Below, piece after piece: positions 14,291 to 59,186 of a stretch of 64,000 bases of DNA. The notes under the pieces are model-generated. The model worked only from the letters and a program-made list of their open reading frames with translations. It was not told where the DNA came from and did no database searches. Numbering within the stretch: the stretch's first letter is position 1; each line of letters opens with the position of its first letter. The DNA is from Blasia pusilla (taxonomy: Eukaryota), in assembly GCA_050084515.1 (NCBI GenBank), contig CM114271.1:42098001-42162000 (forward strand), in the 5' to 3' direction. The position numbers and the translations under genes were made by a program.

Positions 14291-15269
14291 CTTGCATCTC
14301 CACCAACAAACTCTCTTACGTGCCACTCCTTGGTAACCTATGTAATCATCACCAACTATCTAGGAAAAGCCAAGAGGTTGCATAGGTGGTCATAGAATCC
14401 AAAGTCGGGATGAATCTCTCCAACTTGCTAAATCGATCAAAATAGCAAGCGTAGGTTTGTGCCCTTTATTTCTAACTAAGGACCCATCATAACACTCCAT
14501 CAACACCTTAGTATGAAGCTTACCCTCACCAACATAGATCCCGCTCTGCTAAACCTTAGCAAACCATGCCCCAAGATTATGTCAGCCAACCCGCTACCTC
14601 GTCCAACACTCAACTAGCCCTAACATGGCCAACCTACAATTGCAATGACCAAATCAATGGTCCCTACCCTTTCCAAGTCCTATGCCCCCAGTAAGGAAAT
14701 ATCCCTTGCTAGGGAACTCTGATACCCTTGTACGGTGGACACCAAAAAATGGACAAGTCCGTTCCTATAGCAGACATGGATGGAAAAATGTAGACATATC
14801 CACGAACATGGATTGGAAGAGGTGGAACCTACACTTATAGCTCAAGGTGGAAAGCAAGGCAAGGGTGGATGGGGCAATAATGGGGACAAAGTGGAGGTGG
14901 GGGGATGAGAAAGAATGGGGAGGTGGGGCCCATATGGACAATTCCTTTCATAGGATGGACGTGAGTCCACGGACATGGATTTTGTCCACATGCAACCTTG
15001 TCACTCAAATCTGCTTGAAATAATGGTGCCACTTTCTCAAGCAATAGACTACTGCAAAGAACTCCTTCTCATAAGTGGGCCATTTGCATTCCACACTACT
15101 TTGCTTCTTGCTTTTGTATGCTACAAATCTCCCTTCTTGCACCGACACTCCTGCACTAGCATGCGTATGCACCTTGAATAATTTATTGATCTTATCACAT
15201 GAGCATGTGCTTTAGCACATGCTCATGTGATAAGATCTCTTTAACTTAATTGAACGCTAGATTGACTAT

Positions 15270-15680
15270 GGGGTCCATATGGTGTTGACAAACTTTGCGG
15301 TCTCACTATTTGTGAAAAGTTCCTCAAATAGGTTCGGTGGAATAGGATGGATCCAATGAACCTTCTCATCCCCTTCAAAGTAGAGGGAGGTTTCCACTCA
15401 ACAATATCTTTGAATCTCTCCATATCAAGATGGATTACTTTTGCACTAATCACATGACCCAGAAACTTGATCTTGCTCAAGCCAAATTCAATCTTCTTCA
15501 CATTGCTATACATTGTATTCGCCTGAAGCATTGACATAACCGCTTCTAAGAGTTGAGCGTGCTCGTCTAGTAACTTTGAGGAGATTAATATGTCATCAAA
15601 TTGAATAGAGATGATGACATACTTATCCATCTCCTTATGGAAGATTGACTTCATCAATGTGATGAATGTTGAAGGCACAT
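15270..15680 (-). mobile_element. Ty3/Gypsy reverse transcriptase fragment
   Basis: PSTFITLMKSIFH...FDDILISSK...IKFLGHVIS...DIVEWKPPSTLKGMRRFIG, typical Gypsy RT domains 4-7 and connection region. Confidence 0.8.
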
Positions 15681-17049
15681 TACATAAATCGAGGAAAGAT
15701 CTTTGTGTGACCCACCAAAGTTGAAACCTAGACTAGCTAGTCGGGAGACCAAGAAGGGCAGCCACACTAACCGTGGGACTAACAGTCTAACACTATACGA
15801 GATGCACATGAGTCTTGTGAGTTGTGACTAGTCTTAGGTGAGAAAGGGACATACCTACTCATGGGGGCAAAGGCAAGGCAAGCAAGGTTTGGGACCTGAA
15901 GACAAGCACCAAGTTGAGGGCAAGAAGCAAGGAACACATGAGTATTCAAGATGAGTAAAACCTCATCAAAATACATCACAAAATTTGAGAAGTGAAATTT
16001 TTACTCCAATTCAGTAGCAAAAAATAAAGTGCTAACTTTGATATCCAATAGGTAAAAAAATTACACCTAATCCAATTAATATAATTTTACTCTTTCAATA
16101 CATATCGACTATTTATTTTGACGGGGATTAGTTATCATTGCTATGCATGTTACATATCAAGTTATAATAGAAAACCTAGTAGAAAACAAAAATATTTCAT
16201 ATAAGTTATTTTCATACCTATGAAACTTAAATACATCTTGTCTTATATGGAAGTAAGGTATGGAAAATGTAAAAAACCATTTCAAATTTCATATATTTTA
16301 CTTGCAAGATTTATATCATATATACATCTAAATCTTTAGACATGGACATGAATAGCTCATGCATATTAGAACATTAATTTATTTATGCCACTTCAAATAC
16401 ACATCTAATAGAATTTTTTGACAAGGGCATATGTTTGATTTGTGTTGATAATAAGCAAGGACTCTCAATCATAAAAACTTCCAACCTTAGTGTAGCACAT
16501 TGAAGTGACTGACAAGAGTCCTTGCTTATTAGTGTGGGTCTAATAGAATTTTATGACAAGGGCATATGTTTGATTTGTGCTGATAATAAAATTTTAGCAA
16601 GTGATTCATATTGAGAGTGGGACAAAGTATCATGTGTAATTTTTTTACATATTTTTCTCGTAATCAATAGACTACCTACTAGTAGATATAAGGCTTAATA
16701 ACACTTTTAAATACTACTTGACTCAAGTCATTTTTTTATTACTGGCTTGAATTTTTCACCCTTGTAGTCCATTATTTCAACACCTTCTCTAAGTTGAGAA
16801 TAGTTACTACATGTGTAAGCCAAGAAAATTTATCCTGCATCGTGCCTTGGTTCATTATAGTGAAGTGATTGACAAGAGTCCTTGCTTATTAGTCTAGCAC
16901 ATTGAAGCGTCTCTCAATCATAAAAACTTCCAACCTTTTCACTAGAAAATTGATGAATATAAGAACAAGCAAGTTAAACGGCGTTCAAAGCTAAGACGCC
17001 TTCCTTTAATTATGAACTAAGCACATTGAGGCACAATGATCCAACACCA

Positions 17050-23931: not shown

Positions 23932-24552
23932 TCAAACGTGGCTGACGATCACTGGTGGTTGAGCGGTTCCAGTGCCTAGGAATGATAAGAAACCCCCGGG
24001 AGCCTCTTGGTCATCCAAGAAAAGATCATCAGGAACCCTGAAAGCTCCGTGTGCAGAGATAACAGCTACCCCCGCAAGACTCGAAGAGATCAACAATGAA
24101 CCAACATCAGTGAGAAACAGCCCCAAAATTGTGATGACTGACATGCACACCAAGATCTCTCTCTCTGTGAACGTCCTGCCCCAAAGAACCAGGGGATCCC
24201 GACGAACCATGTACAAGTAGGCCCACGCAGCGACGATCAAGGCCAAAGTGAAGAAAGCGAAAACATGAGTCACCAGACTCATACCTATAAATCCCAAAAG
24301 TACGATAATATAATTGATCCGGAAGTAGCCGAGATTCTTTCGAACGCGAGTCACAGCCTCGCTGAATGACTCGGGCTTCGAGAATGCATTTCGATCCACC
24401 ATCTCTGTCCATGGCCGCCTCTGGGCAAGTGCAAACTTAGTCGCTTCAGATACATGTGAGATGAAGGCCCTCGCTGCAGGTGTGGCCGTGATACCTCCCA
24501 CAGATACAGGGGTACCAGAACCTGCTGCGGGTGCTGCTGCAGTGCCCGCCAT
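23932..24552 (-). CDS. PRA1: PRA1 family protein (prenylated Rab acceptor, PRA1.B-like), intronless
   Basis: 206-aa ORF with PRA1 signatures RRPWTEMVDRNAFSKPESFSEAVTRVRKNLGYFRINY, hydrophobic hairpins, and HGAFRVPDDLFLDDQE. Confidence 0.95.
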   Translation of the reverse strand: MAGTAAAPAAGSGTPVSVGGITATPAARAFISHVSEATKFALAQRRPWTEMVDRNAFSKPESFSEAVTRVRKNLGYFRINYIIVLLGFIGMSLVTHVFAFFTLALIVAAWAYLYMVRRDPLVLWGRTFTEREILVCMSVITILGLFLTDVGSLLISSSLAGVAVISAHGAFRVPDDLFLDDQEAPGGFLSFLGTGTAQPPVIVSHV

Positions 24553-25554
24553 CTTGATTCAAAAAACACAGATCTCTTCGTTCCTGGCCCTTTCTCCTTT
24601 CTCTTTCGTACCTAGAACCGAGCAGCGGCTTTCAGTTAAGATGACGATTCCTCTCCTCTCGCTCCCGGTCTAAATCTGTCTGAAATCACTTCCAAATCTG
24701 AACAACCCACACCTCTCCTACAACACAAAGCACGCATAAAAAAAAAGCAACGCGGCTGAAACCCTACGAGTCTTGTACTTCAGATCCGAGACACCAAAAT
24801 GCCTGTCAAATCTTCGAGTCAATCCGTCGTCCGGATCGTGATATTCTGCGCTTCCTCTTCCACAATTCGACCTTGCACAGCGCCCTGCCTTTATGCGCAG
24901 ATCTAGATCAAAATCGCCATCGCGAGCACGAGTCTCAGGGATGACCCTTCCGTCTCACTTCGAGCAAATCGCGCAAGATGCTGCCCCGCTCACTCCGTTG
25001 GCTTTGTGCCGTCTTTCCCAGGTCCTTCCCAGGGACCACGGCTGTTCCTTCACATGAAAGCAGTCCGTCTCGAATCAGAGGACGACGCGGTTGGAAGACC
25101 AGAGGGCAGGACGCGTCACCTTCTCTGACCCTCGCCAACATAGCCATGAAGATAGCGGTATCGTGGGGTTCGTGTGTTTAGAAAGGGGTTTTTTGGAGGC
25201 ATCTACACTTGGACTCGTTTTGTGCTTCATCGTGAACGTGGCTACTTCTCCCGGCAGCATTTATTTGTCGGAGGAACGCCACGAAGACAGACGTGAGGGT
25301 TGACGTTCTCACTAATCTTTTGCTGGCCAATTCAGAGGCATCGACAACTAGGCAGCAACATTCTGAACTCTTCGGCTCGAAGAATCTCTGGTCCACTAGA
25401 TTTGGAGGAGTCTCTGGTGGCCGTCAACATGGCGTGTTCGGACCACGCTGCGTTGTAGCTTACCGTGTTTCCCCCGGCCAAAGGCATTCCTTGCCGCAAA
25501 GGTAGGAGGACATGGCGGGGAGTTTCAATCATTCCAAAAAGTAGTGGGTCACAT

Positions 25555-28500
25555 TTATTTATTATTTATGGAAATATATCCACTTTATTATAAAATAAAT
25601 TTCAAAAAAGGACAAAGAAAGGTAATAACAATTCAAAAGAAGAGTCAAAAAATGCATAAAAGAATGCAAAAAAAAAATGGCAACAAGCCAACGCAAACAC
25701 AGGCTCAACGAGCTACACGATTGATAGCCTGAAACAAATCTAAGAAGAACACGAGTGGTTGGTCAGACGTGAATGGATGATGAGGCGAGCGACCCCCCAC
25801 CACCTCCGCACGACGTATCAATGCCAAGGCTTGTGCACGTTGTAAGGCCACTGAGATGCATTGCCAAAAATAAGTAGTAACTACCGAGAGAGAAGGACTA
25901 CGGGAAGGGGCAAAGTGATGATTCTCGAGGGAGTGGTGAGCACATGTTTTCAGGAAAGTATCAAAAGACACATGTAAATGACCGAATACTTCCACTGCAA
26001 AAGGAATAAATCCATCAATCGCATGTCTCACAACATAACTTAACTCCTTGATTCTTGCTGCAGCTTCGGCCGCCAAACCTTTGGTATGTGCGGCTTGACA
26101 CATGAAGTTAGAACGTGTTGGATCAGCAACCGCCACATCACCTAGTGTCCGAAATCCACCTCGAGACATAACAAGATCCACTCTCCAACGAGAGGTTGCT
26201 TGTGTGGTTGAAGGTAGGACATGGAGTTGCTCTTGCCCAACGGTGTATCCTGCAGTACGAGCCACCGATGCTACCGCCTCTCTAATGACATAATGTGTGG
26301 CCGTTCGTTCTCCACCATGTGCACATCGGAGAATATGGATACCCTTGGCATCAATGGGATCCCCGCATACATAATTTGGCACACCTAAGAGAGAAGGATG
26401 GGGAAGTCCAAGACGTAATCGCAAAGCTATCAAGAATATACTTCGAGGAAGACGAAATGGAAGAATAAGAGGATTTGTAGTAAGCCACACCTCCGCTCCG
26501 GTACCCCCACATGAACGTAGACAAGCTCGATTAGCGTTAGAGGATGCCTCGGAGCGAATGCTGGAAAAGTTGATTTGATGCAGATTCTCGGAGATATGCT
26601 CTTGAAGTCGATCAAGCCCTTCCGTAATCAATTGACTGAAAGGGGGTAGAATTGCTTGTGTAGCAAGAGGAAGAAGAGCTCGTGCAGATCTCAGTTATTG
26701 TTGAAATAACAAGTCCCCTCTCTACATGGGCGATATGATCCATCAAGATAGGTGTATCTCCTTGGAGAAACCTTGAAGCCATAATTGGTGCTACCAATGC
26801 CCAACTCCCCAAAAAGACTGCGGGAGCAGATGTGACTGTGGAGGACAGTCCCACCCCTCCAAAAGAAATAGGCAAGATAGCTTGTCGTGAAGCAAAAATA
26901 CCATCCTCTCTCTCAAAGGTATTCGGGCCAAGAAGTTGACCAAAAGTTGCCAATATAGAAGCATCAAAAGAGCCCAACCGATGTAAGAACCTTGAAGTGG
27001 GAGGACAAGTGCTAAGAAGGTAGGAAGGACGTCATAGAAAACATTTGAAGAGAATCCCATAAGCCACTTGGGGATCCCCTAGATGAGGTAACAAATGAAG
27101 CCATTCCACGTCTTTCAAAAGGGCCTCATCCAAGAACTTTGAGACATAGTCGATGAAGCCAGTTGGGACCCCAAGAACTCTAACCCCTTCAATGTAGATG
27201 GGAAAATCAGGAGTAGGTGGGATGAATGTTGAGGGAAGGCATGAAGGAGACCATACTCCACATTTACTAGGTTGGACTTTAAGGTTTAAGAAAGAGAGTT
27301 GCTCCACGAAATGGGTATAAGCAAGAATCACTTCAGAAGGAGGACCTATAATGTGAGTGTCATGAGCAATAGAAGGGAAAAGACAAGATGGAAATGCTTG
27401 CGCTGATGCTCAAAGGGCAAGAAAATGGGCAATGGCAAAGAGTGGGCCATCCATGGGATCACCTTGACGTGTGCCACAAGCCGATTGTAGAATACTATAT
27501 TCCCTAGAAGTAGCATGATGGGAATAGATAATGGGCGTATCATAGGAATAGAAGGAGCAAACAAATTGAATGTGCCTCGCGAGTTGTCCTCCTCCACAAC
27601 GTAACTCCTCAAAGATGGCTGCATGAGAAACTGAATTGAATGCGTTAGCCACATCAACTTGAGTTGCTACCCAATCTGGATGAATATCAAGAGTGGAGCG
27701 AACCCATGCACCACAGCCTCACAACCTCCAGGAGTTGCCATTCCAAATTGATGAGGAAATAAGTGGGCACTAAAGTGAGGACGAAATTCCAAGCATAGGG
27801 ATTGACTAACCAAGCGGTATAAAACCTGTCGTGCGCCTACTCTCCTTGAACGTCAATCTTAGTGTTGCAGAAGCGTACGTTCAGTAGGACACGCTCTCAT
27901 CGCCCACCTGCATCCAAAAGCACTCACATTAGTCTGGCTTTGGGTCCAGCGGCCTTCCAACCCACCGAGTCCTCAACTCGGCATCTCATCAAGCTCAACC
28001 TTCCCTCATTCATAGGTTCCCAACACGGCAAGTCCTTCAGGACTTGGAACAGACAATCTGGTTAGTCCAGGAACCTAAAACGGCACTTGCGCGCCTATCA
28101 GTCCCAACTGTTCAACGGACCTCGTGCGAGTTCCTAACCGGGACCGAAGTAATTGAGTCGCGGGTTGGAATCCAAGAGGGATCTCTAAAATTCACCTCAA
28201 TAGACTTGGTTCAGGTTTTCAATCCCAACTCCAAACTCCCTTTCCTTTCCATGCCCTTGAGCCGCCCCATGGAGCCCAAAGTGGGGTTTGAGTCCCAAGC
28301 ACCCTTGGAGACCTTCCCCCTTACTAGTAATTCTGGGGATCTCCAGTAACCCCCCACTTTTGGAAAAGGATGGTCAGGCCCTTCATTGTGGCCTTCAACC
28401 TGACTCTTCTTACAGTCGTTTTCTGGTCGTCTCTCAGCTGCTACTTGTGCGTTTGCAAAGATCTTTAGTGCGTCTCAACTGACTTTCCATAAGCTTTCCA

Positions 28501-30124
28501 ACACATCCTTATTCGTCCCAAATGCATCTTGGCACTAAAAGTTATGGCCATAAATACTGTCGGAAACTCTCAAACGTCAATGGCGTCCCAAATCCGGATT
28601 CCTTCCTTTGACAACCCACTTCCTAGACTTGACTCCTCTCAAGTCTTGGTCCGCGTTTGGTCCAGGTGTCTCAGTCGCGACCACAACATATGAAACGTGA
28701 AGCCTTGCTTGCGTCTCATCTCTTGTCTCTTATCCGAGACCACTCCAAAGCGCAAACCATCTTAGCGTGAGCCCGCTAGTGTTCCGATGTTACGCTTTGG
28801 CGCTCGTTTGGTAATGAGGGTCGCGACAAAACCTCTGCAATAGCCAAAGGGCACACACCTGAAGGAGACTTATCCATAGCCAACAAACGACAAGCCCCTA
28901 AGAGCCTAGAGATAGAGAATGGGAGACGACCTGTCGCCTTATGTGCACACACCTTATATAGAGACAAAGCCACTTGCTCAATTTGCTAGGATAAAGAAAT
29001 CGCGGAGATGCTCAGAAACCATCCCTGATAGCCTGCTTGCTGACAAGCGAGGAGTATGCAAAAAAGCCCTTGTGAAAACCTCCAAGTCAAGCTCCAAGTC
29101 AAGGTCCGTTGTATAGTCTTCCACAAAAGGTGGAGCATCGCCACTTGAAGGAGGATGAAGAGCTTCTAAGAGAGCCAATGTTTCCGCACTTGGAACCGTC
29201 GGAGAAAGAGGACCCAATGCTTGAGCTGCACGTGAAAACTCACCAACCTGCCCCAAAAGTAGACTTCGTCGAAGGCGTTATTGTATTGAAGGTCTCCCAC
29301 AATTGGCATGTTGAGTGGGATGAGCCGCAACTAAGGTCTTTGCTCGAAGTATATGCTCATTCTGAAGATTCTCCCAATCCCCAGACATAAAGCGTTGAAT
29401 ACGTGTGGAGGTTTCACGATGACCCGTTGCACCATCCCTTGGAGGGAGGACTAAAACCCATTGTGGGAAGAGTAATAGGAGATACCAAGCATTTATATGT
29501 GTGGGGTCACGCGCTAGCCTTTCTAATGGGAATAGCAAAGCTTGTTGGGTGATGGGGCGAAGAGCAATAGGAATGCGAGTGGAGAGTCTAGGATGAGGAA
29601 GACCTGGATGGAAAGAGCGAAGGAGATCAATTTGGCTTAACCAGGTCCAAGCAGTTGTTGTGGGGAGTGCAATAGGAGGTGGTATCGGGTTAGGGATTGA
29701 AGGCCCATGCATGGATCGACAATACCGCTGATGTCTTTTGATCCCATTAGGAGCAAACTCCTTACCACAAGGTATTCAACGAACCTTTGGTACAAATGGA
29801 GAAGTAGAAGGGTTACAAGGAGAGGAGGTAGGAGGTGCAAGAGGTGGTGATGGCCGACGATGAGGGGGTAAGTAGGTTGGGGAAGGAGGAGGAGGAAGAG
29901 GGAAGATTCGGGTAGAATAGATGGGAGTTGGAAGCAAGGGCATAGATGAGATATGTGGGGATGGCAAAGTAGAAGGATTCAGTAAAAATGGATCAAGATT
30001 AGGCTCAATAGGACGAGGCAAAGAAGAGAGAAGAGGAGAATCCAAAAGAAATGTAGTGAGTGTAATGGGTGTATTAGCACATGGAGGAAAATGGCGAGAT
30101 CTACGAAGAGGAGGTGAACCAAGG
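25555..30124 (-). mobile_element. CRE-clade-like non-LTR retrotransposon (RT plus C-terminal zinc knuckle and restriction-like endonuclease), frameshifted and interrupted by a solo LTR
   Basis: RT-related motifs RLLAMDKSPSGVCPLAIAEV|LYRLV, HQFGMATPGGCE, DVANAFNSVSH and GTRQGDP. C-terminal LRLRLGL, CGDPIDAKGIHILRCAHGGERTATH, RVDLV, DVAVADP, IKELSY and FIPFAVEVFG. (TAA/TAAA)n-like 3' tail near 25555-25570 on the minus strand. Confidence 0.85.
27827..28828 (-). mobile_element. Solo LTR (family A, 1002 bp) inserted in the CRE-like RT
   Basis: TGTCGTG...CGCGACA termini and a perfect 5-bp TSD AAACC (27822-27826 and 28829-28833). Removing it restores host AIAEV|LYRLV. Strand is inferred from the homologue at 12403. 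Confidence 0.9.
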
Positions 30125-30855
30125 TGTCGTGCGCCTACTCTCCTTGAACGTTAATCTTGTTGTTGCGGAAGCGCGCGTTCAGTGGGTCACGCTCTCAACA
30201 CGGATCTGCATCCAAACATGCACTCTGGTTAGTCGGATCTTGGATCAATCAGCGGGCTAACTTTCTGAGTTCTCGTCTCAATCTCTCATCAAGCTCAACC
30301 TTCCTAGTTTCGCGGTTTACAACACGGGCAAGTCTCAAAAGACTTGGGACAGACTTTCTGGTTGGTTCAGGAACCTCAAATGGCGTTTCGCGTCTGGCGA
30401 TTCCAACTGTCTGATGGACATCCAATGAGTCCCTAATCGAGACTTGCACAAAGTGACTAGTGGGTTGGAATCCAAGTGTGGCATACAAGGTCCACTTCCT
30501 TGGATCAGTTTTGGGTTTCGAGTTCGAACGCCAAACTCCCATTCCATCCCGTGCCTCTGATTGTGGGGATTTGTGTTCCAAGATATCTTGGAGAGACTCC
30601 TCCCTTACTAGTACTTTTGGGGATCTCCGGGGTCCCCCTACCTTTAGGGAAAGACACCTAGGCCTCTCCAATTGGCCCTCAGCCCGATTTCTCTCACAAT
30701 TGTTTTTGGGCAATATCTTAGTTTTTACATATGTGTTTGCTAAGATCTTTGATTCATTGGAAGCGTCTCAAGATAAGCTTTCCAACGCATCCTTATTTGT
30801 CCCAAACGCATCTTGGGACTAAACGTTATGGTCCAAAACATAGTCAAATTCCCCA
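30125..30855 (-). mobile_element. Truncated LTR of family A
   Basis: Begins TGTCGTGCGCCTACTCTCCTTGAACG as at 27827; similarity ends near 30850, where the palindrome-rich element begins. Confidence 0.85.
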
Positions 30856-31059
30856 AACACTGCATGATTTATTTGTTCTGCAATCCGTGGGACTCCAAAA
30901 AGTTGCACAATGAGGGGTAAAAAATCATTTGATGCCTTAAAGCAACTCATCGGAGTCCGACGAGTTGCTGGACTGTCCCTTATTTTTTGGATACTTTTGG
31001 CCAAAAGCAACCCGTCGGACTCCGACGGGTTGCATTTTCCCCCCATGGCAAGTGGTCGG

Positions 31060-33609
31060 AAGCAAACCTAGAAGGCTGCAGAAGCAAACCTAGAGGTTGC
31101 AGATTTTGAACTATGGCTTGATGACATCATAGATAAGCCGACAGAAAACCCAGGATTCAAGATGATGTTCAAGAATCACATCCTACCTCAGGCAAATCTG
31201 GACGAGGAAATAGACACGAGAAAAGAGGATTTTGCAAAGAAGAAGCAGGATCTTCAACAGTAGGCGGCCAAGCCATCTCGACAAAGAGTTGCCTAGTGGA
31301 TGGTGTACAAGTACCTCATCAATTGTGTGAATGCAAGTACCTGGCGCAAATTTTTGGTAGCCTACAAATTGTGGGCTTCTCCGCCTGATGGAGAGGGATT
31401 CTCCATCTACGACATGGAGATGGGATAGGGCATGTCTGACTAGGAGGTAATAAATTCTCCAATATGGTTGGACTTCAACAACCTTGAGGACATTACAGAA
31501 AAAAATCTAAGCCTGGTCTATGATGGAGTGGTCGCTGGTAGGGACGACATTCTGAACTTTGTGAAGCCTGATGAATTTTTCGAAGGAGATGTGGAGGCGC
31601 AAGACCTTGAGACAGCAGAGTTGGTGGCAACGACCGTCACTGCCAAAGACAAATCCACAAGGGGTTTGAAAAGCCAAGGCAAGGGGTTCAAAGAATTTAG
31701 GGCACACTCGAGAGAAGCGAAAGCGGGAGGCGCCTAGTTCATCCGAGGGAGGAGATAAGGATGTGGAATACACTCCATTATCCTCGGGCAAGCATAGGAA
31801 AACGACCACCAGGACAAATGTCCTTCTTCACTTGACTCATCTTGTCGATGAACTGCAGAGTTTCAATTCTCAAGAGTCGACACCTGCCATCGAGAAATTG
31901 ACCGTGCTAGGGTGAAAACTCCTTCGAAACAGGCACGCCCCCTGGACGATGCATGGGGCTGCTAAGGAGGTGACGGTGGACCTCCTCATTGCAGATTTTC
32001 GTTTTGGGTTTTGCTTGTGGGACAACAATCCATCTGACACTGTCCCAAACTGGAATGTCCCGCTTTCCTATGACCAGATCGCTCTGTTGTTTTCTTTTGC
32101 TAATGCATAGCTCAGTGATAGGGGTTGTTTCTTGGTCCTTACTGGAGGGAGTGAAGACGAGCCCTTCAACCTTCAGTGCGTGAAGAGGTCACTGAAGTGG
32201 AGGACGACGCAAATCGTGGGTCATAAAAAATGAATATCCACTCAGATCGGCGACAAATCAAGTTCGGGTAAGTTCACTTTTTGAACAAATTAAGATGGTT
32301 CAGAAACCCGTCGGATCCCAACAAGTTGCAAATTCAAGGTAGGAACCAGACAGGTTGCAAGTAGAATTCCTTTTGCACTTGTGTCTGCAGTGATGCAATC
32401 CGTCTGAAAGCGATGGGTTGTAAATTCACCAACATGTCTCCAATGATTGCAACCCGTTGGAACCCGACGGGTTGCAAGTAGCATTTCTTTTCCACTTGTT
32501 TTTGGAGTGATGCAACCTGTCTGAAAGTGACCGGTTGCTCTTATATTAGGAACTTCTCAACTATGAATAATTTGATTGAGTTGTAAGCCAACCGTTGGAC
32601 TCTGACAGGTTGCGGTTTTGTCCAGCAAAATGAGAAACCTCTCGGATTTTGATGGGTTGCTCATAGGCAAATAATCCTCTTAGAGTTGTAAAGCAACGCG
32701 TTGTTGTCGTGTCAAGCCTATAGGCCAAGTTCCGATGGGTTGGTAATCACTAGGGATTAGTAGGACGGGTTTGTCTACTATTTTGTAAGGCTCGAACACA
32801 ACTTCTAGGTGTTCCAAATCCCGGATCCAATGGATCCATGCTCCCATGGGTACAACTTAGATAGTCTCTACAATTCCCTCCCGGGAATTTTCATGCAAGA
32901 AGGGACCCCCTTACTTGGAGGAAGGGAGAAGTCACCTGCCTTGATGCAAATGCTCATGGAGCTCTGCTCGAGGCCGGGTGACTTGGTCTTTGACTTAGTG
33001 GGCCTATCAGGGGTGAGTATCAAAGGCGCCTAGCAAAGTGGCAGGAACATTCTCTGCCTTGAGGGAAGGTCAGAACTGTTTGACCTTTGCAAAGAGGTAA
33101 AGGTGGATAACGAGAGGCTAGTGGGAGTATACAACTCTCCTCCAAAGCCAACTGCTCTAGCTCTAGAGCCACCATTGATAGTGACACCATCGTCACTTCC
33201 TACGGTTCTGAAAATTGGGAGGGCAAAGTTGACACTAATTTTGGAAGAGCTCTTGGATGATGACGAGTGAGTTCAAAGATTTATCGGACCCAGCTTGACT
33301 AAAGCGTTTTGGAGCTGGGATTTAGTGGTTTCCAAGGGCGAAGCACATATTGATATTGGATGGGTGTCATCTTGCAAAGCATACAAGATTTATTGTCGAG
33401 GAAGGCGTTGGGACTCAAATCATGTTACATGGGACCGTTATGGTATACCTAAGGGGGGGCCAAGGCTCTCGAATTCCACAACATTTACAATCCCCGTCTA
33501 TAATCGGCTAGAGGAGCCACTTGTATCCCAACACATTCCTTTTGTCCAGGAACCTAAGAGAGTTGGGAGTAAATTTGTAGATGATGAGGCTGCAAAAATC
33601 ATAGACTAG
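31060..33609 (+). pseudogene. Decayed intron-containing gene, copy 1: unknown N-terminal domain plus beta-class N6A/N4C DNA methyltransferase-like domain
   Basis: VDLLIADFRFG (31976-32008, DPPY-like motif IV position) precedes GGREKSPALMQMLMELCSRPGDLVFDLVGLSGVSIKGA*QSGRNILCLE (motif X/I/II-like, about 32917-33063). GTAAGT donor at 32268. Several in-frame stops. Confidence 0.65.
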
Positions 33610-34589
33610 ATCAAATGTACATTTCCGAGCTTCCCTCGGATGTAATAAAGGACAAGAAGTTTTTGAACCATGATGGTTTTTGTAATTTTTTGCTGAATTG
33701 TTTTTTGTTCTTGTCGATTATGTTGGTCTATCTACTCGATGCTATTTATTTTGCAACCCGTTGGATTCCGACGGGTTGCAAACCAAGGAACCAGGGACTA
33801 TCGGATTATGATCAGGTTGCAAATTTGGGCTGTGATTTGCAACCATAAAAATTAGGGACCAATGAGCGAGTTTGGAATTTCTCGGATTTCAACAAGTTGT
33901 AGTTCGTGGATAAGGTTTGCAACCCGTAAAAAATTGACGGGTTGCAAATCAAGAACTAGGTTTGGAACATGTGGAATTCATAGAAGTTGCAAACAGATGA
34001 TTGCTTGCCATTGCAACTCGTTGGTTTTCGATGGGTTGTTTGTCTGTAGGTAGCGAGTGGAGTTGAAATTTTTTCTTCTCTAGGACATGTATGTAATGTT
34101 TTCCTAATTGATTTGAATGGTCTGTGATTTTTTTTCTGTGAACCCGTCTCACGTCGACAGGTTGGAAGCCAAAAATGGAACTTGGATAAGTACAGATGTA
34201 TGCAAAAATTCTTGTGTCTTGTGATATTTATAGACCCGATTGACGAAGTTACTACTGGGACTCTCTTGCAACCTTTTTTTAAACCCCATTTTCTGTCATC
34301 CATTCAGGCAACTTGTTTGATTCTGACAGATTGGCTCCTTGAGTGATTTCTTTTCCTGTTAGTCCAACTTTTCAGGCATTCTGGCAGGCTTCTTCACTTT
34401 CGCCTCGTTCCTCCATTATCTTCACACAATTCTTCTCTAACATGTTATTTTTGAGACGTGTTGGATTCCTACTACCTGTCGGATTCTCATGTCAGATTCC
34501 CAACCTGTCTTATTCTCATGGGTTGGAGGGCGGAATGGAATCACTTGTCAAGATCCATCTTCAAATGGATTTCTACTACCTGTCGGATT

Positions 34590-36404
34590 TTGTAATTTTG
34601 AGAGTTACACCTTTTGATTCAAGGAATGAGGACTCTATGAAGTAAAGGTTGTATATACATGACTGTTTTAGATATTATGTTTGTGTATTGGAAGAATGAG
34701 TAATATTGAAATGGATCACGAAGCTCGTAGGATAAGGCAGAGAGGTGGAAAATCAAGGATTTGCCTTAGAGGAGAGGGAAATGCGGTAACGAAGTCTAAA
34801 GACTCAGAGCGAAGCTTGGAAAAGACAACGAAGACATATTAAGAACTTGTTTATGAAGTTCTTTGCTCTTGAACGAAGCATGATGAAGAAGAAGAGGAAG
34901 AAGTACTTCGCTCTTCAGCGAAGAAGGACGAATGAAGCACTTGGAACAAGCACAAAGAATGCAGCGCTTTGTCTTCAGACAAAGAGGAAGAGCTTCGTCC
35001 TCAAGGGAAGAAGAAGAAGTTTAGACTTTGCAGCGAAGCGAAGATAAGACCCAACATGATTTCAAGCGGCACATCATATGAACAATTAGGCTAGGAAGAG
35101 GCGTGACTTTTTGAACCAGATAGGAATTTAGGACACTTATGCCCAGCGGATTCATAGCGATCATAGGAAAAGATAAGAGAACCGTAGATCAAGGTAGTTA
35201 CAAACTTTCAATATACACTAAGATTCCTAAGAGATGCTTTAGATCTTTGGACTTACTACTGTCTTGGAAGATATTTAAGAAGCATGAAAGTAGTTATCAT
35301 CATCATTCTTTCACGAAGTCCTTATGCTATATGTATGGTCCAAGCAAGGGAGTAGTACCCTCTCAAGCTTGTATACACTTTGAAGCTTACTGATTCTTGA
35401 TGGAGTAGTAAAGAACTCATTTCTTCATTCTGATGTGCGATGCATATGTCTGAGAATTCTTATTGGGTCTGTAGAGTGAAGAGTGGATCAGGAGAACACT
35501 TTCATCATTAGAATAATCAACATCGAGTTGTAAAAAATCTATTCGATAGAGAGTAGCATGCCTAGACGGATTGAGTTCCGAAAGTAGGAGAAGCCAACTT
35601 CTTGTTGAGGTCTCTGTGAGGTTCTTTGATGTTGAGTGATGGCGGGATGAATCGGTTGCTTGATCTTGAAGCTCCTACTTCTTTTTGGCAAAGTCATGTT
35701 TCCTCGGGTCGCCAATCTCCTTGTCGACATCCCCCTGCGGAAAAATATGGTTCTTGAACATTGTCTTGAACCCAAGGTTCTTTTCCGGCTTATCCCGGAT
35801 TTCATTTAACCACAACTCAAACTCCTCCGCCAATTCGAGGCTAGCCTCCTTGGGAACCGGCTGAATTCTCTGTAGGTCGGCTTGAAGGCATTCAATCATG
35901 GACTTTCCCAGCAAGCGCAAGGCATCCCAGAAGGACCACTCTCATAGCCAATGGGAGATGATTGGGTCCGACATCCCGGGGGATGGTGTGCCGATTATTT
36001 CTCTGCCTCTGTTCCCTCAAGACTGATCTTCATCAGTCGGATTTTCCCTCTTAGGGATGTCGTGCTTTTTTTCACCGCCTGGATTTTTGTATTGTAACAA
36101 CTACATCTTGGGAAATAAATGTGTTGGCCCAAGTCTTCTTCTTTATTTTTGCTCCTTTTGGGAGCATCTGTAATGTACAAGAAGTATAAAAATTGATCTT
36201 TTTACATTAATTTAATGAGTTCAATCCCCAAGAGGATCAGGATTATATGAAAAGAGAGTTCAAGATGGCATTTATCTTGCAATAGTTGTAGTTAAGTGTG
36301 TACAATTTGGATTCAATCACTTATCAGTGTATTCTTCTCTCTATTAGTACTAAGATTTCTTTCCTCGATTCTCTCTAGTGGAATTGAATCCACGCTCATG
36401 TAGA
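34590..36404 (+). mobile_element. LTR-like insertion related to family B, split by an inversion (parts at about 34590-35636 and inverted 36169-36404)
   Basis: Purine-rich LTR-like composition. TGTAATGTACAA at 36169 is the reverse complement of the TTGTACATTACA terminus of the family-B LTR at 47469. The left boundary is approximate. Confidence 0.5.
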
Positions 36405-38880
36405 TCAAGCTGCGTAGAGGATGGTGTTCAGATTCTTGAACATTTGTGTGAACGCAAGAACATGGAAGAAGTTTCCGGCGGCGCTCAAGCTATGGGCTGA
36501 TACTCTGGATGGCGAAGGATTCTCCATGTACGATGTGGACATAGCCCTCGAGATGAGCCCTTGGGAAGTGCTCAACTGTCCAATCTGGTTGGACTTCAAC
36601 GACCCCGATAAGCTCACTGACCCAGCAATGCGAGACTTGTACCATGCGCTAGCTATTGACAAGGAGGACATCCCAAACATCTTCAAGACCGAGGAATACT
36701 TTGAAGGAGATGCCGAGGCACAAGCGATTGAGGCGGCGGAGATTTTGTCAAAAACAGTCACGGAAAAAGACAAGTCAACTACGGGGTTGAAATCCAAGGT
36801 AAAGGCCCCCAAACCGTCCAAAGCAAGATCATCAAGATGAGAAGGACGGCTACGGGAGGCCCCCAAACCAAATCTTGTGGATTTCGATGTCATGTAGACC
36901 CCAACAAGCAAGCATCCCACTCACGAGAAGCGAAAGAGGGAGACACCTAGTTCCTCCGAGGGGGTGGGGGGGACAAGAATGTTGTCTATACTCCCTCATT
37001 GTTGGGGAAGCACAAGGATGGAGCATCAAAAATCACCATCCTGTTGCATCAGACATCGTTGGTGGAAGAATTGGAGAAGTTCTCAACACAAGAGTCCACG
37101 CTTGCCTTGGAGAAGCTGACATTGTTGGGACATAAGCTTCTCCAAAGCCGCCATGCCCCGTGGACTATCAATGGGGTACGTGAGGAGGTTGCAGTTGACC
37201 TTCTCATCGCTGATCTACCGTCGAGGCTCAGATTGTGGGCAGAAAATCCACGCGACAAAATCTTGGATTGGAACATTCCATTCACATATGACCAGATCGT
37301 GTTGATGTTCTGCTTTTCTAACGCGTATCTTAGTGACACGGGATGTTTCCTAGTTCTCACCGGAGGAAGCGAGGATGAGCTCTTCAACTTGCAGTGAATG
37401 AAGTGATCGTTCAAGTGGCAAACCATGGAGTCTTGGGTAGTGAAGAACGACTACCCACTAAGATCATCTTCAAACCAAACCTTGATAAGTTCGATAACTT
37501 AAACTTGCAAGTGTTTCTTTTCTTTCCTGCAACCCGTCGGACTCCGATGGATTGCAAAACCCAGCATAGAAAGGGAGTGTGTCTTGCAACCCGTCGGACT
37601 CCGAGGGGTTGCAAAACACACCCTAGAGAGGGAGTGGTCCTGCAACCCGTCGGACTCCAACGGGTTGCAGGACCCACCCTAACAGGCCTTGCTGCAACCC
37701 TTTGGAGGCCGACGGGTTGTAGCACCCAAAGTTTTACCCAAAGTGTTACCCATATGCAACCCGTTGGTCTCCAACGGTTGGAGCACCTACTCCACGGGTT
37801 CTTGGGTGTGTCGAGCAACCAATCAGATTCCGACGGATTGCATATGGGTAACACTTTGGGCATCCACAATTGGTGATCAAAGCGTCTGAATGCTCCGGGC
37901 CCCCTAAAAACAAATTGCCTCAATGACATCTTTCATTTGCAACGCGTCGGATTCTATCACGTTGCTCCTGGAAGACCTCTTCCTCCCATCGGTTCTATTT
38001 TACTTCATCCCATGGAAGTTTTATTTTACGGGTGTTTTTTGCAGATTGAATACTCCTACATGTATTGTTTTGTTAGATGTGAGCACAAGTTCGAGGTTTT
38101 TGAGGTACAGGATCCTGTTGATCCAGGTTCAGATGGATACACTCTGAACAACCTCTCATATTCACCCCCGAGAATTGTCGTCGAGGAAGGGGTGCATGTG
38201 CTTGGAGGGAGGGAAAAACCATCCGCACTCCTGCAAACCCTGATGGAGCTATGTTCAAGGCCAGGTGATTTGGTGCTCGTTTTGGTGGGTCTTTCTAGGG
38301 CAAGTGTTAGAGTTTCTTGGCAAAGTGGCCAAAACATTCTTGCCTTGAGTCTAGGAACACCTTTTTGTACTTTTCCAGGAGGCAAAGTCAGACTACAAGA
38401 GGGTGATTGGCGTTTACAAGTCGCCTGCACGGACAAAGGAACATGCGTTGGAGCTAATAGTTATGACTCCATCCTCACTACCGGTGATCCCAAAAATCGG
38501 TAGGGCGAGGCCAACGGTGATTCCAGAGGAGCTGTCGGATGATGACGAGTGAGTGTTGGTGGCTTGGATTTGAAGCGTTTTGGAGTTGAGATGTGTTGGT
38601 TCCCACGGAGGGAGGAAATATTGATTTCGATGGGTTTTCGTTTGCAGAAGCTTCAAAATCAACTATTGGGGCAGGCGTTGGGACTCATCTAGGATCACAT
38701 GGGACAGATACAGGGTTCCTTGGGGGACAAGGCTCTCGGATCCTCCTTCCTTCTCAATTCCAATCTACAGCCGTGTAGAGGAGCTTTTGACTAGTCTTGA
38801 GAAGTCTCTTGTAAAGGAACCGGCAAGACTTAGAAACATTTTTGTAGATGACGAGGGTGAAGAGATCAGAGACTTAGATT
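35637..38880 (+). pseudogene. Decayed methyltransferase-like gene, copy 2; its 5' part (about 35637-35990) is inverted onto the minus strand
   Basis: Protein-level paralogy to copy 1 throughout (FELWL..I.DKP..N.GFK.MFKNHI; CVNA.TW.KF; PIWLDFN; FEGD.EAQ). VDLLIADLPSRL at 37194-37229, EKPSALLQTLMELCSRPGDLVLVLVGLS at about 38213-38296, and acceptor TTTGCAG ending at 38044. Confidence 0.65.
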
Positions 38881-40531
38881 TTCTTGTTCAGGAAATCAGA
38901 TGTAAATAACCAATTCAAAAATGATTTTAAATAAAGTGGATTTTTTAAACACACCCAATTCTCTTCATGCTTATGGTCTGATGTTATTTTTTTATCACAG
39001 TCCGATATTGGCTTGAGGCTTTTTCTGCTATTGCAACTCGTCGTAGACCGACGAGTTGCCTGATGTCTTCTAACATTTACATTTAAACCGATGTCTTTCA
39101 CTCTACGAAGATCAATTTGTAACCTTAGATTCTTTTGTTGTGGTGTGCTTGCTTTCCTAGATTCTAACCTTTGGTTAGACATGTTGGTAACCCGTCTGAT
39201 TCCAAAAGGTTGAGACCCACTCCAATTGAAGAGAAGAATTTTTTGTGCGGACAGTCCCGTTTCAAGCAACCCGTCGGAGTCTGATGGATTGCAAGATAAC
39301 CTAAGCAAGAGACATCAGTCTTGCAACCCGTCGGATTCTGATGGGTTGCAAGAGTTGCAAACTGATAGCTGATGCCGACAAGTTGCAAGGGGTGCAAATT
39401 TTTGGATTCTGACGGGTTAGAAGGGGTGAAACCTGTTGGATTCCAACATTTAGGGTTTGAATGAATTGACATAGGTGCATTAGTTCCTCTTTACTCCTCA
39501 CCGCTATCAACCTTTTGCTTCAATGGTCCTCCTAGTCCGATCACGTTTTCTTCTTCATGCATACATTTCTCAATGGCTGAGAGAATGGTGAAACCAAGTT
39601 GTCAAATGCACAACAGTCCATGGTATACTTCATGCACCCATTTATGAGCCAACATCATCCAATGCTATCATGAAAGTCTTCAGCTACCATCAATGATGAG
39701 TGATTTGTTCTCTTGTGGAAAATCCCCTTATGGATGAGTATTGATCAGATGGGATATTTAATGCCTTTTGCATGAAGAGTCAACAGTCCATAATGTCAAC
39801 CACATCTTCTGAGAAGTTAAACCTTGAAGGGTATAGGAGTCTATTGACACCATAGTCAGAGTCTTTATTTGAACCTTCTATTGAGATGAAATTACTACTT
39901 CTAGTCAAATTATCTGCCGATGGTCCTCCAACAATCATACCCCTTAGCCCAACTTACAGTAGAGTTGGCTTAGACAGGCAATATGAATCAAATTGGGCTC
40001 ACATGGAGAATGATGGAAGGATGTTTGTAGTGGTCTTATGATGTCTACTTCTTTTTCCAAGCCTAGAAAAAGAAGGGTAGTTAAGGCCCGAATGTGGTCA
40101 CTTGCTACTCTCTTCTAAAGATTTCATGAATTTGAAAGCAAACAAAAATTTCAAAAATGTCAAAAAGTTTTAAAGAGAGGAGGAGGATTCTGACCTTTTT
40201 TTTGAAGAGAGACTCTCCTCTCTTACTCTCTCTTGCCAAAATACCAGCCCCCCTTTGAGAGCCAATAATCTACCAATCTGGCCCATGCCTCTTCATCGGT
40301 ATCAGGGTGACACGGGATTACGCGGTGAGCCCCATGAATGATCCAATAGTTCTTAATATTGGACCTCTCTATTTTCAAAAGTTGAGCAATTTTTTCCTTA
40401 TATATTTGAGGGAGAGAGATTGTGCATCCACATACGTGTATGCCTCAATTATGTGATTTTGGACGGCTGCCATGGTCACTGAGTGTTGCTTACTAATCTC
40501 GATGCATGACACGTTCACGTACTTCATTACC

Positions 40532-50949: not shown

Positions 50950-51910
50950 GTACGAGAGCCCGCCGTGTTCTCCGCACTCGGACATCAGAGGTATCCGGAT
51001 TGTGTTTGCCTGTAGCTGCATATTAACAGAACTTTAAGGCTCGAATCGTCCAGGCTTTCCGTATCGCACCACTTACCTATACCACAGCGATGCGGTTCCG
51101 CTTGGGCCTCCCCCAACCATCGGTGGTTGGTTCGACACACTGCGAGTGTCGCCGGAGCCTGGATCCACTTGGTGTGCATTTGGCACGCTGTCGATTGGGG
51201 TGAGAGGATACCCACTCACGATGCGAAGGCATGGGATATCATGTTCAGTGATTGCTCGGGAGAGTGGCTTCCATGTGCAGAGAGAGAGGCACTACTCCAT
51301 GCGGGATTCCCTCATTCGTGCCGATCTCTACATGACACGGAGGTCGAGGTGGTTGTGGCGGACGTGGTAGTCACAGATCCCCACGCGGGAGGCGGTCGCG
51401 AGCCCAAGTGGTGGCCCAAGGGGCGAATGCTACAAGGAGCGGCGGCGGCGAAGAAGACACATATCTACAGTCGACTACACGAGGGACACATCTTCATCCC
51501 CCTGGCCATAGAGATGTATGGGGCTATGGGGGAGAGGTTCGACTCGTTCCTTACGGACTGCGCCCATCATCTCCACTCGAGAAATGGGTTGTCCTTAGCT
51601 CTGCGATTCTGTACAGGCAGCTGGTCTCCATAGCGTTGCAGCGTGCCCAGGCTAATGGGAATTTGCGGCGGGCTCAGGCTGTGGGAGGCGCCGGCGCTAG
51701 AGGCCCACTTAGTAGTAGTCATAGCTCTCTTGTTGTTGCTGATATTGTCTCTGCTGTTGGTGAGTTTCGTCGTTAGGGGGGGAATGCCCCGTTCTTCCTT
51801 TTCTGGTCTTGTTGTGGCCTTCAGGTTTTGACTCTTTGAGTCCCCCTCTTTTGTACTTCCGATGGGTTTTCCATCACTCGTTTTTATCGAAGTGCATCTT
51901 CATTTATTAT
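50950..51910 (+). mobile_element. 5'-truncated CRE-type non-LTR element (zinc knuckle plus RLE end)
   Basis: TAMRFRLGLP...CECRRSLDPLGVHLARC, RADL, DVVVTDP, AAAKKTHIY, FIPLAIEMYG and SIALQRAQA are homologous to ORF 25705-26631. Confidence 0.8.
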
Positions 51911-53442: not shown

Positions 53443-53637
53443 CTTTGCAAATCGAAGTTTCATCCCCCCTGAGCAATAAATCGCTTCATTCATTCGTTCC
53501 CTCTCTCAGAGGAAATTCCTTGAATCCGGTCGCCACTAAAAGAAACAAACAAGGAAGATTGGGCGACTGCAGTGGAGGCCCAGTGGGAATCGGTCAATGC
53601 GGATCAGAATTTGAAGTGTACAGCGGGGGTGGTGAAC

Positions 53638-54618
53638 ATGATGCCATCGAAGAGAAAGGCATGGACGAGGGGGCAGAAGCTGGGATCAGGTCTGTACTCG
53701 GAGGTGTGGTTGGGGACGAACGAGGAGAACAAGAAGAAGTTCGCCGTGAAGTCTGCAGACAAGTCCAATCTAGAAAAGCGGCTGGCTCTGGAGGTGGAGC
53801 GCAAGATTCTGAAGGAATGCAAATCGGACTACATCGTCCGATACCTGGGTTGCGATATGACGGACAAAGTTAAAGAGATGAAAAACCTCAACACCTTCAA
53901 TCTTTTCATCGAATGGGTACCGCGAGGCAGTGTCCTAGACCAGATTGACAGAGCCGGCGGAGCTCTGCACGAGTTCCTCGTAGCGGCCTACACTCGCGAT
54001 TGTCTCAAAGCTCTGGACTTCCTCCACACCAAAGGCATCGTTCACGGAGACATCAAAGCTCGCAATCTTCTCATCGGAAAGAACAATCTCAAGCTCTGCG
54101 ACCTCGGCTCGGGAAAATTCCTCCGGGACGGCGACCTCCCCCTCACTCCCAGGAAGGGCCAGCACCTCGAGAGACGGATTTTCGTTACCGGCACGCCTGG
54201 GTGGAAAGCGCCAGAGGTCCAGGATGAGACGGAACAAGGCCCCGAATCCGACATCTACTCGCTTGGCTGCACCGTCGTCGAGATGTGTACGGGTTCCCCG
54301 CCGGCGAAGAACCCCATCATCTACTCCTCAAGCGACATAGACCCCACCACCGGGTTTCCCGTCTGCACCATTGACATTCCTCCGAGCTACTCGGCTCAAT
54401 CCAGGGAGTTCGTGGACCTGTGCCTCGCGGAACACTCCGAGGATCGTCCCTCGGCTGCCGAGCTTCTCAAGCATCCGTGGATTATGAACGCGCCTCCGTA
54501 TCCTGTGGACAAGCCTCGCCCTCGACCGCCTCTAAAAAAGCAGCCGCCGCCGCCGCTTCCGTCTCGCGGCATCTGCCTGCCCAAGTGCGGCTCTCTCTTC
54601 GGCTGCAAGGAAATCTGA
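53638..54618 (+). CDS. Ser/Thr protein kinase, MAPKKK (MEKK/MAPKKK17-18-like), intronless
   Basis: WTRGQKLGSGLYSEV, FAVKSA, IVRYLG, FNLFIEW, HGDIKARN, DLG, GTPGWKAPE, SDIYSLGCTVVEMCTG and RPSAAELLKHPW. First in-frame ATGs are at 53638 and 53641. Confidence 0.9.
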   Translation: MMPSKRKAWTRGQKLGSGLYSEVWLGTNEENKKKFAVKSADKSNLEKRLALEVERKILKECKSDYIVRYLGCDMTDKVKEMKNLNTFNLFIEWVPRGSVLDQIDRAGGALHEFLVAAYTRDCLKALDFLHTKGIVHGDIKARNLLIGKNNLKLCDLGSGKFLRDGDLPLTPRKGQHLERRIFVTGTPGWKAPEVQDETEQGPESDIYSLGCTVVEMCTGSPPAKNPIIYSSSDIDPTTGFPVCTIDIPPSYSAQSREFVDLCLAEHSEDRPSAAELLKHPWIMNAPPYPVDKPRPRPPLKKQPPPPLPSRGICLPKCGSLFGCKEI

Positions 54619-58802: not shown

Positions 58803-59186
58803 CTAGGCTCCACCAGAGGCTGTTGATGCAACAAATGCCATCGATGACGAGCGTGGCAGTGGGGCCATTGGACTCAAGGCGATAAATCTGGCCAGGCTTG
58901 GTCTCATCCGAGTGGAACAATCAGCCCAAAATTGTCCTCTGGAATTGCACGCTCCATCATTCATCCGCCAACCGCTATCCACTTCATACGGCATGGCAAC
59001 CAGCTCCAATTTCTTCTTGGAGAAATCAAAGATCCCAAAGCCATCTCTCACAACCATCACTAGACCCCACCCGCCTTCAATCAACGCCATCGTGCCTACT
59101 TGGAGCCCCACATTGTAGTCCGAGATTGAGAGAATGTGCACGGATTTCCTCGTTATGTCGACTTGGTAGTACTTCCTGATGCTCAT
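58803..59186 (-). pseudogene. SMP-30/gluconolactonase/regucalcin (SGL beta-propeller) fragment, frameshifted and truncated
   Basis: YYQVDITRKSVH...GLVMVVRDGFGIFD...RMNDGACNSRGQFWA, then after a frameshift KPGQIYRLESNG...VIDGICCINSLWWS. Confidence 0.7.

Follow-up and report, generated by a model that had tools for sequence, protein, structure and literature searches.

Two decayed copies of a Blasia pusilla repeat family with a methyltransferase-like protein and arrays of a 31-bp palindrome

We analysed a 64,000-nt stretch of Blasia pusilla contig CM114271.1 (the window; all coordinates are positions in it). Between 30.8 and 39.5 kb it contains two broken copies of a gene, copy 1 and copy 2, together with arrays of a palindrome. 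The encoded protein carries a domain related to the N6-adenine/N4-cytosine DNA methyltransferases (Pfam family N6_N4_Mtase, PF01555). The explanation we prefer, with a probability of roughly 55%, is that these are two dead members of diverged subfamilies of a transposon-like family, which would combine a non-catalytic PF01555-derived protein with palindromes acting as cis sites for a dimeric, family-encoded protein. We regard the feature as real and half-resolved, and we infer its mechanism. For feature coordinates see Table 1.

Both copies lie on the same strand and share 66–71% nucleotide identity. A blastn comparison gave four exon blocks, at 31102–31257, 31287–31685, 31705–32261 and 32781–33611 of copy 1. 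In copy 2 the counterpart of the first block is inverted (35666–35824), and a tblastn search with an outside liverwort relative (P0004, see below) also placed the N-terminal coding part of copy 2 on the minus strand, from 35927–36057 onward to 35675. Reads were taken from same-species runs: a whole-genome DNA run, sampled at about 1 in 100 and matched at 80% identity or more, and RNA runs. Sixty DNA reads and 17 RNA reads from other family members connect 35639 and 36406 in opposite orientation. Since these copies are without the inversion, it is a private lesion of copy 2. An earlier note made from the window had described two paralogues with characteristic motifs. Both copies and the quoted motifs are present, whereas 35637–36400 of copy 2, taken there as part of the gene, is inverted.

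Copy 1 reads VDLLIADFRFG...WN, followed by EKSPALMQMLMELCSRPGDLVFDLVGLSGVS...QSGRNILCL, and ends in FVDDEAAKIID. Copy 2 reads VDLLIADLPSR...WN, followed by EKPSALLQTLMELCSRPGDLVLVLVGLSRAS...QSGQNILAL, and ends in FVDDEGEE. The first ATG of copy 1 is at 31046 and its terminal stop codon at 33607–33609. The methyltransferase-like domain is interrupted by three in-frame stops and one frameshift in copy 1, and by two in-frame stops, one frameshift and a mutated intron donor in copy 2. Both copies are dead pseudogenes, as the earlier note had recognized. Just after the first ATG of copy 1 there is also a 22-bp tandem duplication (31059–31103, 2.1 copies), which brings in the first stop.

Sequence comparison shows homology between the C-terminal half of the domain and beta-class N6/N4 DNA methyltransferases of the PF01555 type. 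A profile of the C-terminal block of the two copies (A2) was aligned by hhalign with a profile of three annotated phage methyltransferases (A3) at a probability of 96.2 (E = 2.4e-9, 49 columns). The C-terminal half alone gave a probability of 96.6 (E = 4.7e-10). For a whole-domain query, each copy was read through with an X at every break and the two halves were joined. This query aligned colinearly with the phage enzymes over 183 columns, from VDLLIADLP to motifs I–III, with a score of 66.0 (E = 2.8e-9); the reversed control scored 15.5 and all 20 column shuffles scored 19.2 or less. In the alignment VDLLIADLP falls on VDCIITDPPY, LSDTGCFLVLTGGS on VKKPGACVYFFTDW, WVVKN on LVWNK, CEHKFEVF on IHELILF and EKPSALL...PGDLV...GLS...QSGQNIL on QKPVALI...PGDLI...GSG...ESGRNFV. 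The beta-class motif order, with motif IV before motif I in one domain, is therefore likely, but it is not proven.

Database searches pointed in the same direction. The only protein of known structure with a sequence match to A2 was M.RsrI (two PDB entries, E = 0.039). A tblastn search of phage genomes with the C-terminal half returned 265 records (best E = 8e-3); of the best 25, 21 carry an annotation as DNA methyl(transfer)ase or methylase and four carry none. The three best matches by ESM Atlas features were all PF01555 clusters (score 0.89), which we treat as a lead only. The single Pfam match was N6_N4_Mtase, on one of nine window fragments (E = 0.14). The beta-class relation claimed in the earlier note is consequently borne out for the C-terminal block by hhalign, M.RsrI and the phage matches, whereas the motif-IV half gave no independent significant match and the Pfam match stayed below threshold. 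For the N-terminal region of about 350 residues no family match was obtained, and the best ESM Atlas score (0.76, template modelling score at most 0.33) provided no lead.

A phmmer search of 1.84 billion cluster representatives with a 148-residue fragment around motif IV gave four matches, including one true relative. This protein, P0004, is a 488-residue hypothetical protein of Riccia sorocarpa (the name given by the source) and spans the N-terminal region and the motif-IV half. The other three, P0001–P0003, were rejected by eye as low-complexity repeat proteins. A word-indexed search returned only P0004 itself when queried with P0004 at "near" lengths and nothing with the C-terminal half at "near" lengths; with the N-terminal domain at "longer" lengths it was also blank, a weak result as P0004 was missed too. 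Metagenome scans with the C-terminal half alignment and with the exact palindrome were without a match. The family is undescribed in the literature we found on transposons with N6_N4_Mtase, which held nothing on plant transposons; this coverage is partial and Repbase-type libraries lie outside it.

The catalytic motifs of the family are degenerate. The canonical form of motif IV is (D/N/S)PP(Y/F/W), and DPPY stands at this position in all three phage enzymes. Copy 2 has DLPS, copy 1 DFRF and the intact P0004 DLPT, none of which matches the canonical pattern. The loop of motif I that binds S-adenosylmethionine (SAM) reads F-x-G-S-G in the three phage enzymes, compared with VGLSG in copy 1 and VGLSR in copy 2; F-x-G-x-G is absent, and in both copies the first glycine is replaced by leucine. 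Because the odd motif IV is common to an intact, distant relative (29% identity), it is a family trait and not a product of decay in the two copies. With the catalytic tetrad and the first SAM-loop glycine lost, we read the domain as non-catalytic, so that the methyltransferase-like protein is probably inactive. The earlier note had called the catalytic motif non-canonical; this description extends to the SAM motif and to the liverwort relative.

Alternatively, intact members could be active amino-methyltransferases that mark their own palindromes with N6-methyladenine (6mA) or N4-methylcytosine (4mC), either to counter silencing by 5-methylcytosine (5mC) or to regulate transposition, the odd motifs being lineage-specific and functional. 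Such an enzyme would agree with the homology of the C-terminal half, which includes the EKP of motif X and the PGD-VLD context, and a palindromic target resembles the sites of restriction-modification systems. We nevertheless consider an active enzyme very unlikely. Motif IV is without its first proline and its aromatic residue in three of three sequences, the intact liverwort protein among them, the first SAM-loop glycine is a leucine in both copies, and the strong CpG decay of the palindromes described below fits ordinary 5mC silencing. That PF01555 enzymes exist in eukaryotes speaks for the possibility; examples are MpDN4MT1a/b of Marchantia (10.1101/2021.02.12.428880) and the rotifer N4CMT (PMC8885841).

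The main intron lies at the equivalent codon of both copies, in phase 0, and the reading frame runs on across it. In copy 1 the donor is CGG/GTAAGT at 32267/8 and the acceptor AG at 32762–3; copy 2 has its acceptor at 38044/5 (TTTTTTGCAG/A). The equivalent intron position given in the earlier note is thus supported by splice sites at the matching codon. A last intron follows DDDE, with the donor GTGAGT. The gene model of P0004 stops four codons beyond the main-intron point, which would fit a read-through into an intron at that site. In copy 2, about 98 nt (36799–36897) are located between AAG/GTAAAG and TGTAG/A, and splicing would join two frames correctly here; copy 1 has only about 20 nt at this place. 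The segment may be a small intron of which copy 1 has lost a part.

Transcripts were observed in three RNA runs, with a depth of 12–44 over 32609–33811 and of at most 5 over the 5' exon. Assuming a library of the common stranded kind, the reads are oriented as sense transcripts would be, and RNA fragments end at about 33650, beside an AATAAA signal at 33644–33649. Splicing of the palindrome-containing intron was not demonstrated among the best 15 of 290 joints. Seventeen RNA reads start at 32770 behind unrelated sequence without a match to family exon 1; they neither prove nor disprove this splicing. A 20-nt GT..AG stretch (33095–33115) is absent from 22 of 51, 5 of 16 and 18 of 43 RNA reads in the three runs, compared with 0 of 1195 DNA reads, and its loss changes the frame downstream of LCKE. 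This gap is either a micro-intron or an expressed low-copy variant that is too rare for the 1-in-100 DNA sample.

The two copies belong to a repeat family. Summed DNA depth per 400-bp bin was 330–1000 over the exons of copy 1, 210 over its intron and 28–90 over copy 2. Only 171 of 41,675 reads were at least 99% identical, which limits the depth of unique sequence to about 2 (171 × 150 / 12,000). With depths so far above this value, diverged copies of the copy-1-like sequence should number in the hundreds at the least, and those of the copy-2-like sequence in the tens. Most reads (27,504 of 41,675) were less than 90% identical, so the family is old. As the two neighbours fall into differently abundant subfamilies, separate insertions appear more likely than a local duplication. 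In all six coding blocks the proportion of non-synonymous differences between the copies (pN 0.20–0.29) is far below that of synonymous differences (pS 0.63–0.86, saturated). The protein was therefore under selection over most of the divergence.

A repeat search found 24 palindrome units, every one within 30877–39428. They occupy three kinds of place: upstream of copy 1 (three units), in the main intron (four in copy 1, seven in copy 2) and downstream (five in each copy). These are the places named in the earlier note, and its association of palindromes and genes holds within the 64-kb window: besides the 24 of 24 units, 31 of 32 matches to the 13-nt half-site (up to 2 mismatches) lie in 30.8–39.5 kb. 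When up to 3 mismatches were allowed, the 27-nt pattern gave nine matches, compared with none in 100 shuffles. The consensus is 31 bp long, TTGCAACCCGTCGGA-T-TCCGACGGGTTGCAA with 15-nt arms, and replaces the 29 bp stated previously. Units are mostly spaced by 52–65 bp; in the intron of copy 2 they form a 57-bp tandem unit (2.8 copies). They are predicted to form stable DNA hairpins (z-scores from -6.4 to -8.9), with -16.8 kcal/mol and z = -8.9 for the unit at 31007–31033. Around two of the intron units of copy 2, a 31-nt inverted repeat (37737–37767 and 37830–37860, 94% complementary) forms a larger foldback, and degenerate half-sites (CTACTACCTGTCGGATT, twice) are found at 34462–34589. Five Rfam hairpin matches were rejected as look-alikes of microRNA families (27–34 bits, thresholds 88–105). 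A 12-mer from the palindrome also stands in the text of 35 papers; the five matches listed are unrelated sequences of primer type.

Between the copies, palindrome units reach 93–97% similarity. In the copy-versus-copy blastn, exons and palindromes align, whereas the rest of the intron and the flanks do not. Since synonymous sites are saturated and intron and flanks cannot be aligned, while palindromes are kept at three kinds of position, they are the only conserved non-coding feature. Of 192 CpG positions, 52 had changed, 37 by C>T or G>A; at other core positions the figure was 68 of 456. Faster CpG decay is the signature of cytosine-methylated repeats, and the palindromes show this pattern. 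We take their conservation to reflect selection on cis sites; in the simplest case a dimeric, family-encoded protein would bind them.

An alternative is that the palindromes are an independent short repeat, such as a miniature inverted-repeat transposable element, a foldback element or a minisatellite, which invaded the non-coding parts, or that they are a host-factor site, in both cases with no functional link to the protein. Each unit contains two inverted CCGAC cores, which we take to be the dehydration-responsive element/C-repeat (DRE/CRT) core bound by AP2/ERF factors. At 31033, 475 DNA reads run into heterogeneous sequence (agreement 0.48), so palindromes also stand in other contexts, and reads contain arrays with other spacers. 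The 57-bp tandem array and the weak microRNA resemblance, far under the Rfam thresholds, would suit an independent repeat as well. Within the 64 kb, however, all units accompany the two gene copies, and two subfamilies with saturated synonymous divergence both carry them at the same three positions. The depth of palindrome-rich bins (210 at 32208–32608, 83 at 37421–37821) is also of the same order as that of neighbouring coding bins and does not greatly exceed it. We judge this origin of the palindromes to be improbable.

Direct signs of transposition were looked for at both copies. In Pfam searches of the copy fragments, P0004 and neighbouring open reading frames (ORFs), neither a transposase nor a reverse transcriptase or recombinase turned up within or alongside the copies; the earlier note had not recognized a transposase either. 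RNase H was not found there either, and the single RVT_1 match lies on the other strand at a distance of 15 kb, so that a polyprotein of the DIRS1 type is not present. No target-site duplications were found at copies 1 and 2. The left edge, at about 30841, adjoins another repeat, copies of which are located at 28489–28547 and 61430–61497. After 33781 most copies continue differently (609 reads, agreement 0.8), and with this loose end the true ends of the family may lie outside copies 1 and 2. Many diverged copies, as in a Class II family, are evident from read depth; dispersal itself is not seen in the reads. The mobile-element family of the earlier note is thus upheld in its multi-copy nature, whereas termini and target-site duplications were not found at the two copies. 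Mobility would follow from the read depth.

The arrays could, on the other hand, be subterminal or internal sites of a separate transposase of the CACTA, Mutator or hAT type, encoded by autonomous elements elsewhere. Transposases and TnpA bind subterminal repeats. The methyltransferase-like gene would then be accessory or captured and not the binder, and the local copies would be non-autonomous deletion derivatives. Several observations agree with this: each copy has arrays at either end; the 5' side of copy 1 is shortened, and an array directly adjoins its ATG; deletion-type joints between palindromes are present (31046 to 32448 in 92 reads, 33309 to 33599 in 65 reads); and DNA depth of the 3' part is 2–3 times that of the 5' part. 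Yet the window contains no transposase fragment, and terminal inverted repeats were not found at the copy edges. Moreover, an array in the equivalent intron of both subfamilies is not subterminal, and a gene under long purifying selection is not a passive captured fragment. We therefore hold a separate transposase to be unlikely, although it deserves more weight than the other alternatives.

Several results weigh against the reading preferred here, that of a family-encoded, methyltransferase-derived palindrome binder. The Pfam match to N6_N4_Mtase reached 12.5 bits, under the cut-off of 26.7 bits, and NCBIfam gave no match for five of five fragments. The motif-IV half alone was marginal in hhalign (E = 0.018, score 20.6, best shuffle 19.2); its profile (A1) matched A3 weakly (E = 0.15 over 17 columns), and its tblastn search against phages returned 14 noise-level records, every E value being 1 or higher and no record carrying a methyltransferase annotation. 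AlphaFold2 models were unusable, with a mean predicted local distance difference test (pLDDT) score of 38.6 for P0004 with alignment A5 (alignment A4 minus two of seven rows, which were exon-1 fragments misplaced by MAFFT) and 36.8 for the C-terminal half with alignment A6, and the fold lacks structural confirmation. The catalytic motifs are taken from two pseudogenes and one relative and not from a family consensus, and the copy numbers from read depth are uncalibrated against genome size. Besides the missing transposition enzymes, no terminal inverted repeat was found: the left edge (30835–30880) scores only 15–16 over 13–20 nt against either right edge. Gene conversion or later insertions could also give the palindrome similarity, and the heterogeneous reads at 31033 belong here too.

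From these results we propose the following scheme. The host of the family would be a large plant-type nuclear genome, in which the gene carries introns. The family protein would begin with a novel region of about 350 residues, mostly helical, continue with a methyltransferase-derived domain of about 300 residues and end in an acidic tail. The domain would descend from a prokaryotic or phage beta-class N6-adenine/N4-cytosine DNA methyltransferase and would now serve as a non-catalytic DNA-binding or scaffolding module. The 31-bp palindrome arrays, with a spacing of about 57 bp upstream, in the intron and behind the polyA site, would be the cis sites of the family. Their binder would be dimeric and most likely the methyltransferase-like protein itself, otherwise a transposase encoded elsewhere. 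Binding could serve transposition, expression control or protection from silencing. The "self-marking or anti-silencing" role put forward in the earlier note is speculation.

A bolder version of this scheme, which we consider rather unlikely, is that a plant transposon lineage made a prokaryotic or phage beta-class amino-methyltransferase its own reader, or residual 6mA/4mC writer, of a 31-bp palindrome multiplied in promoter, intron and 3' flank. If true, this would be a private self-recognition or anti-silencing system, VANC-like with its motif arrays and built from a methyltransferase fold. A protein that reads the palindromes would provide a new route for a transposon to recognize its own copies and a natural case of a methyltransferase fold put to new use in DNA binding. 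Annotation hardly reveals the family, with one true relative in 1.84 billion representatives, so that domain-based surveys of transposon proteins would miss it.

Other repeats surround the two copies. A high-copy repeat (30124–30840, also 27933–28547 and 61430–62084; DNA depth up to about 1260 per bin) adjoins the left edge of copy 1. Its ORF has no Pfam match, and its RNA reads are mostly opposite in orientation to the methyltransferase-like gene. The spacer between the copies (34614–35640) is another repeat (DNA depth about 380–400, RNA depth 7–16, read orientation as on 32609–33811) with low-complexity, lysine/arginine-rich ORFs. Two long ORFs, at 25705–27031 (minus strand) and 51016–51776 (plus strand), are paralogous by eye and belong to an unidentified element without a Pfam family; they share a cysteine/histidine-rich stretch followed by ...FIP(F/L)A(V/I)E(V/M)(F/Y)G....

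Table 1. Features of the two gene copies, the palindrome arrays and neighbouring genes in the window.
Feature	Position	Strand	Remarks
Upstream array, 3 palindrome units	30877–31041	.	Last unit (31007–31033) is a perfect 27-mer, 13 nt before the copy 1 ATG
Copy 1 pseudogene	31046–33609	+	5'-shortened relative to copy 2 and liverwort relative; stops, frameshifts, damaged last acceptor
Copy 1, N-terminal half of methyltransferase-like domain	31916–32267	+	Motif IV position VDLLIADFRF
Copy 1 intron, phase 0	32268–32763	+	4 decayed palindrome units at 32300–32621
Copy 1, C-terminal half of domain	32764–33267	+	Motifs X, I, II–III: EKSPAL...PGDLVFDLVGLSG...QSGRNILCLE, up to DDDE
Copy 1 downstream array, 5 palindrome units	33750–34173	.	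Beyond AATAAA (33644–33649) and RNA ends (about 33650)
Copy 2, inverted 5' coding part	35675–36057	-	Matches liverwort protein residues 81–126 and copy 1 exon 1
Copy 2 pseudogene	36406–38909	+	Helical N-terminal region, then methyltransferase-like domain and acidic tail
Copy 2, N-terminal half of domain	37107–37484	+	VDLLIADLPS; 2 in-frame stops
Copy 2 intron, donor mutated	37485–38044	+	7 palindrome units at 37526–37973, including the 57-bp tandem unit (2.8 copies)
Copy 2, C-terminal half of domain	38045–38549	+	EKPSAL...PGDLVLVLVGLSR...QSGQNILAL; 1 frameshift at about 38352
Copy 2 downstream array, 5 palindrome units	39030–39428	.	Repeat finding, pattern matching
Reverse-transcriptase fragment (RVT_1)	15241–15732	-	Pfam
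PRA1-family gene	23932–24558	-	Pfam, E = 8.6e-47
Protein kinase	53524–54618	+	Pfam, E = 1.9e-47
SMP-30/gluconolactonase-like fragment	58803–59210	-	Pfam

The closest known systems are the prokaryotic and phage beta-class enzymes (PF01555; M.RsrI, PDB entry 1eg2; M.PhiCh1-I). They share with the family the block of motifs X, I and II/III (probability 96%), and in the 183-column alignment the upstream half runs in the same order, VDLLIAD taking the place expected of the motif IV strand. Unlike these enzymes, the family is below the Pfam gathering score and has degenerate DPPY and FxGxG motifs; it is also eukaryotic, intron-containing and multi-copy, and about 350 residues of novel N-terminal sequence are fused to the domain.

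Eukaryotic genes with bacterial amino-methyltransferase ancestry are known, one of them in a liverwort. Marchantia MpDN4MT1a/b are reported to be active PF01555-type N4-cytosine methyltransferases encoded by liverwort host genes (10.1101/2021.02.12.428880), and N4CMT of bdelloid rotifers is a N4-cytosine methyltransferase of bacterial type (PMC8885841). Compared by these descriptions, they are active, low-copy host enzymes, whereas the present family has degenerate motifs and is repetitive.

Methyltransferase domains borne by mobile elements are known from few lineages; here a whole repeat family has a PF01555-derived domain, kept under selection despite the lost catalytic motifs, and conserved palindrome arrays go with it. 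PMC4738411 describes land plants as having few amino-methyltransferases. There, the methyltransferase domain of DIRS1-type retrotransposons is assigned to a PCIF1-like group and judged inactive from substituted catalytic and substrate-binding residues. The present domain would resemble it in being carried by a mobile element and inactive by its residues. The DIRS1 domain differs in belonging to another methyltransferase group and in its location inside a retrotransposon polyprotein, while the gene described here has no reverse transcriptase beside it and has kept its introns.

The anti-silencing VANC proteins of the Arabidopsis VANDAL transposons serve as a working analogy, with no sequence relation claimed. 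They are not methyltransferase-like, and the palindrome binding considered here is only inferred. PMC5735166 describes VANC as a sequence-specific protein with tandemly repeated target motifs that differ among related elements, and places VANC21 in non-coding regions. What the two systems would have in common is a protein of the element together with private motif arrays in its non-coding parts.

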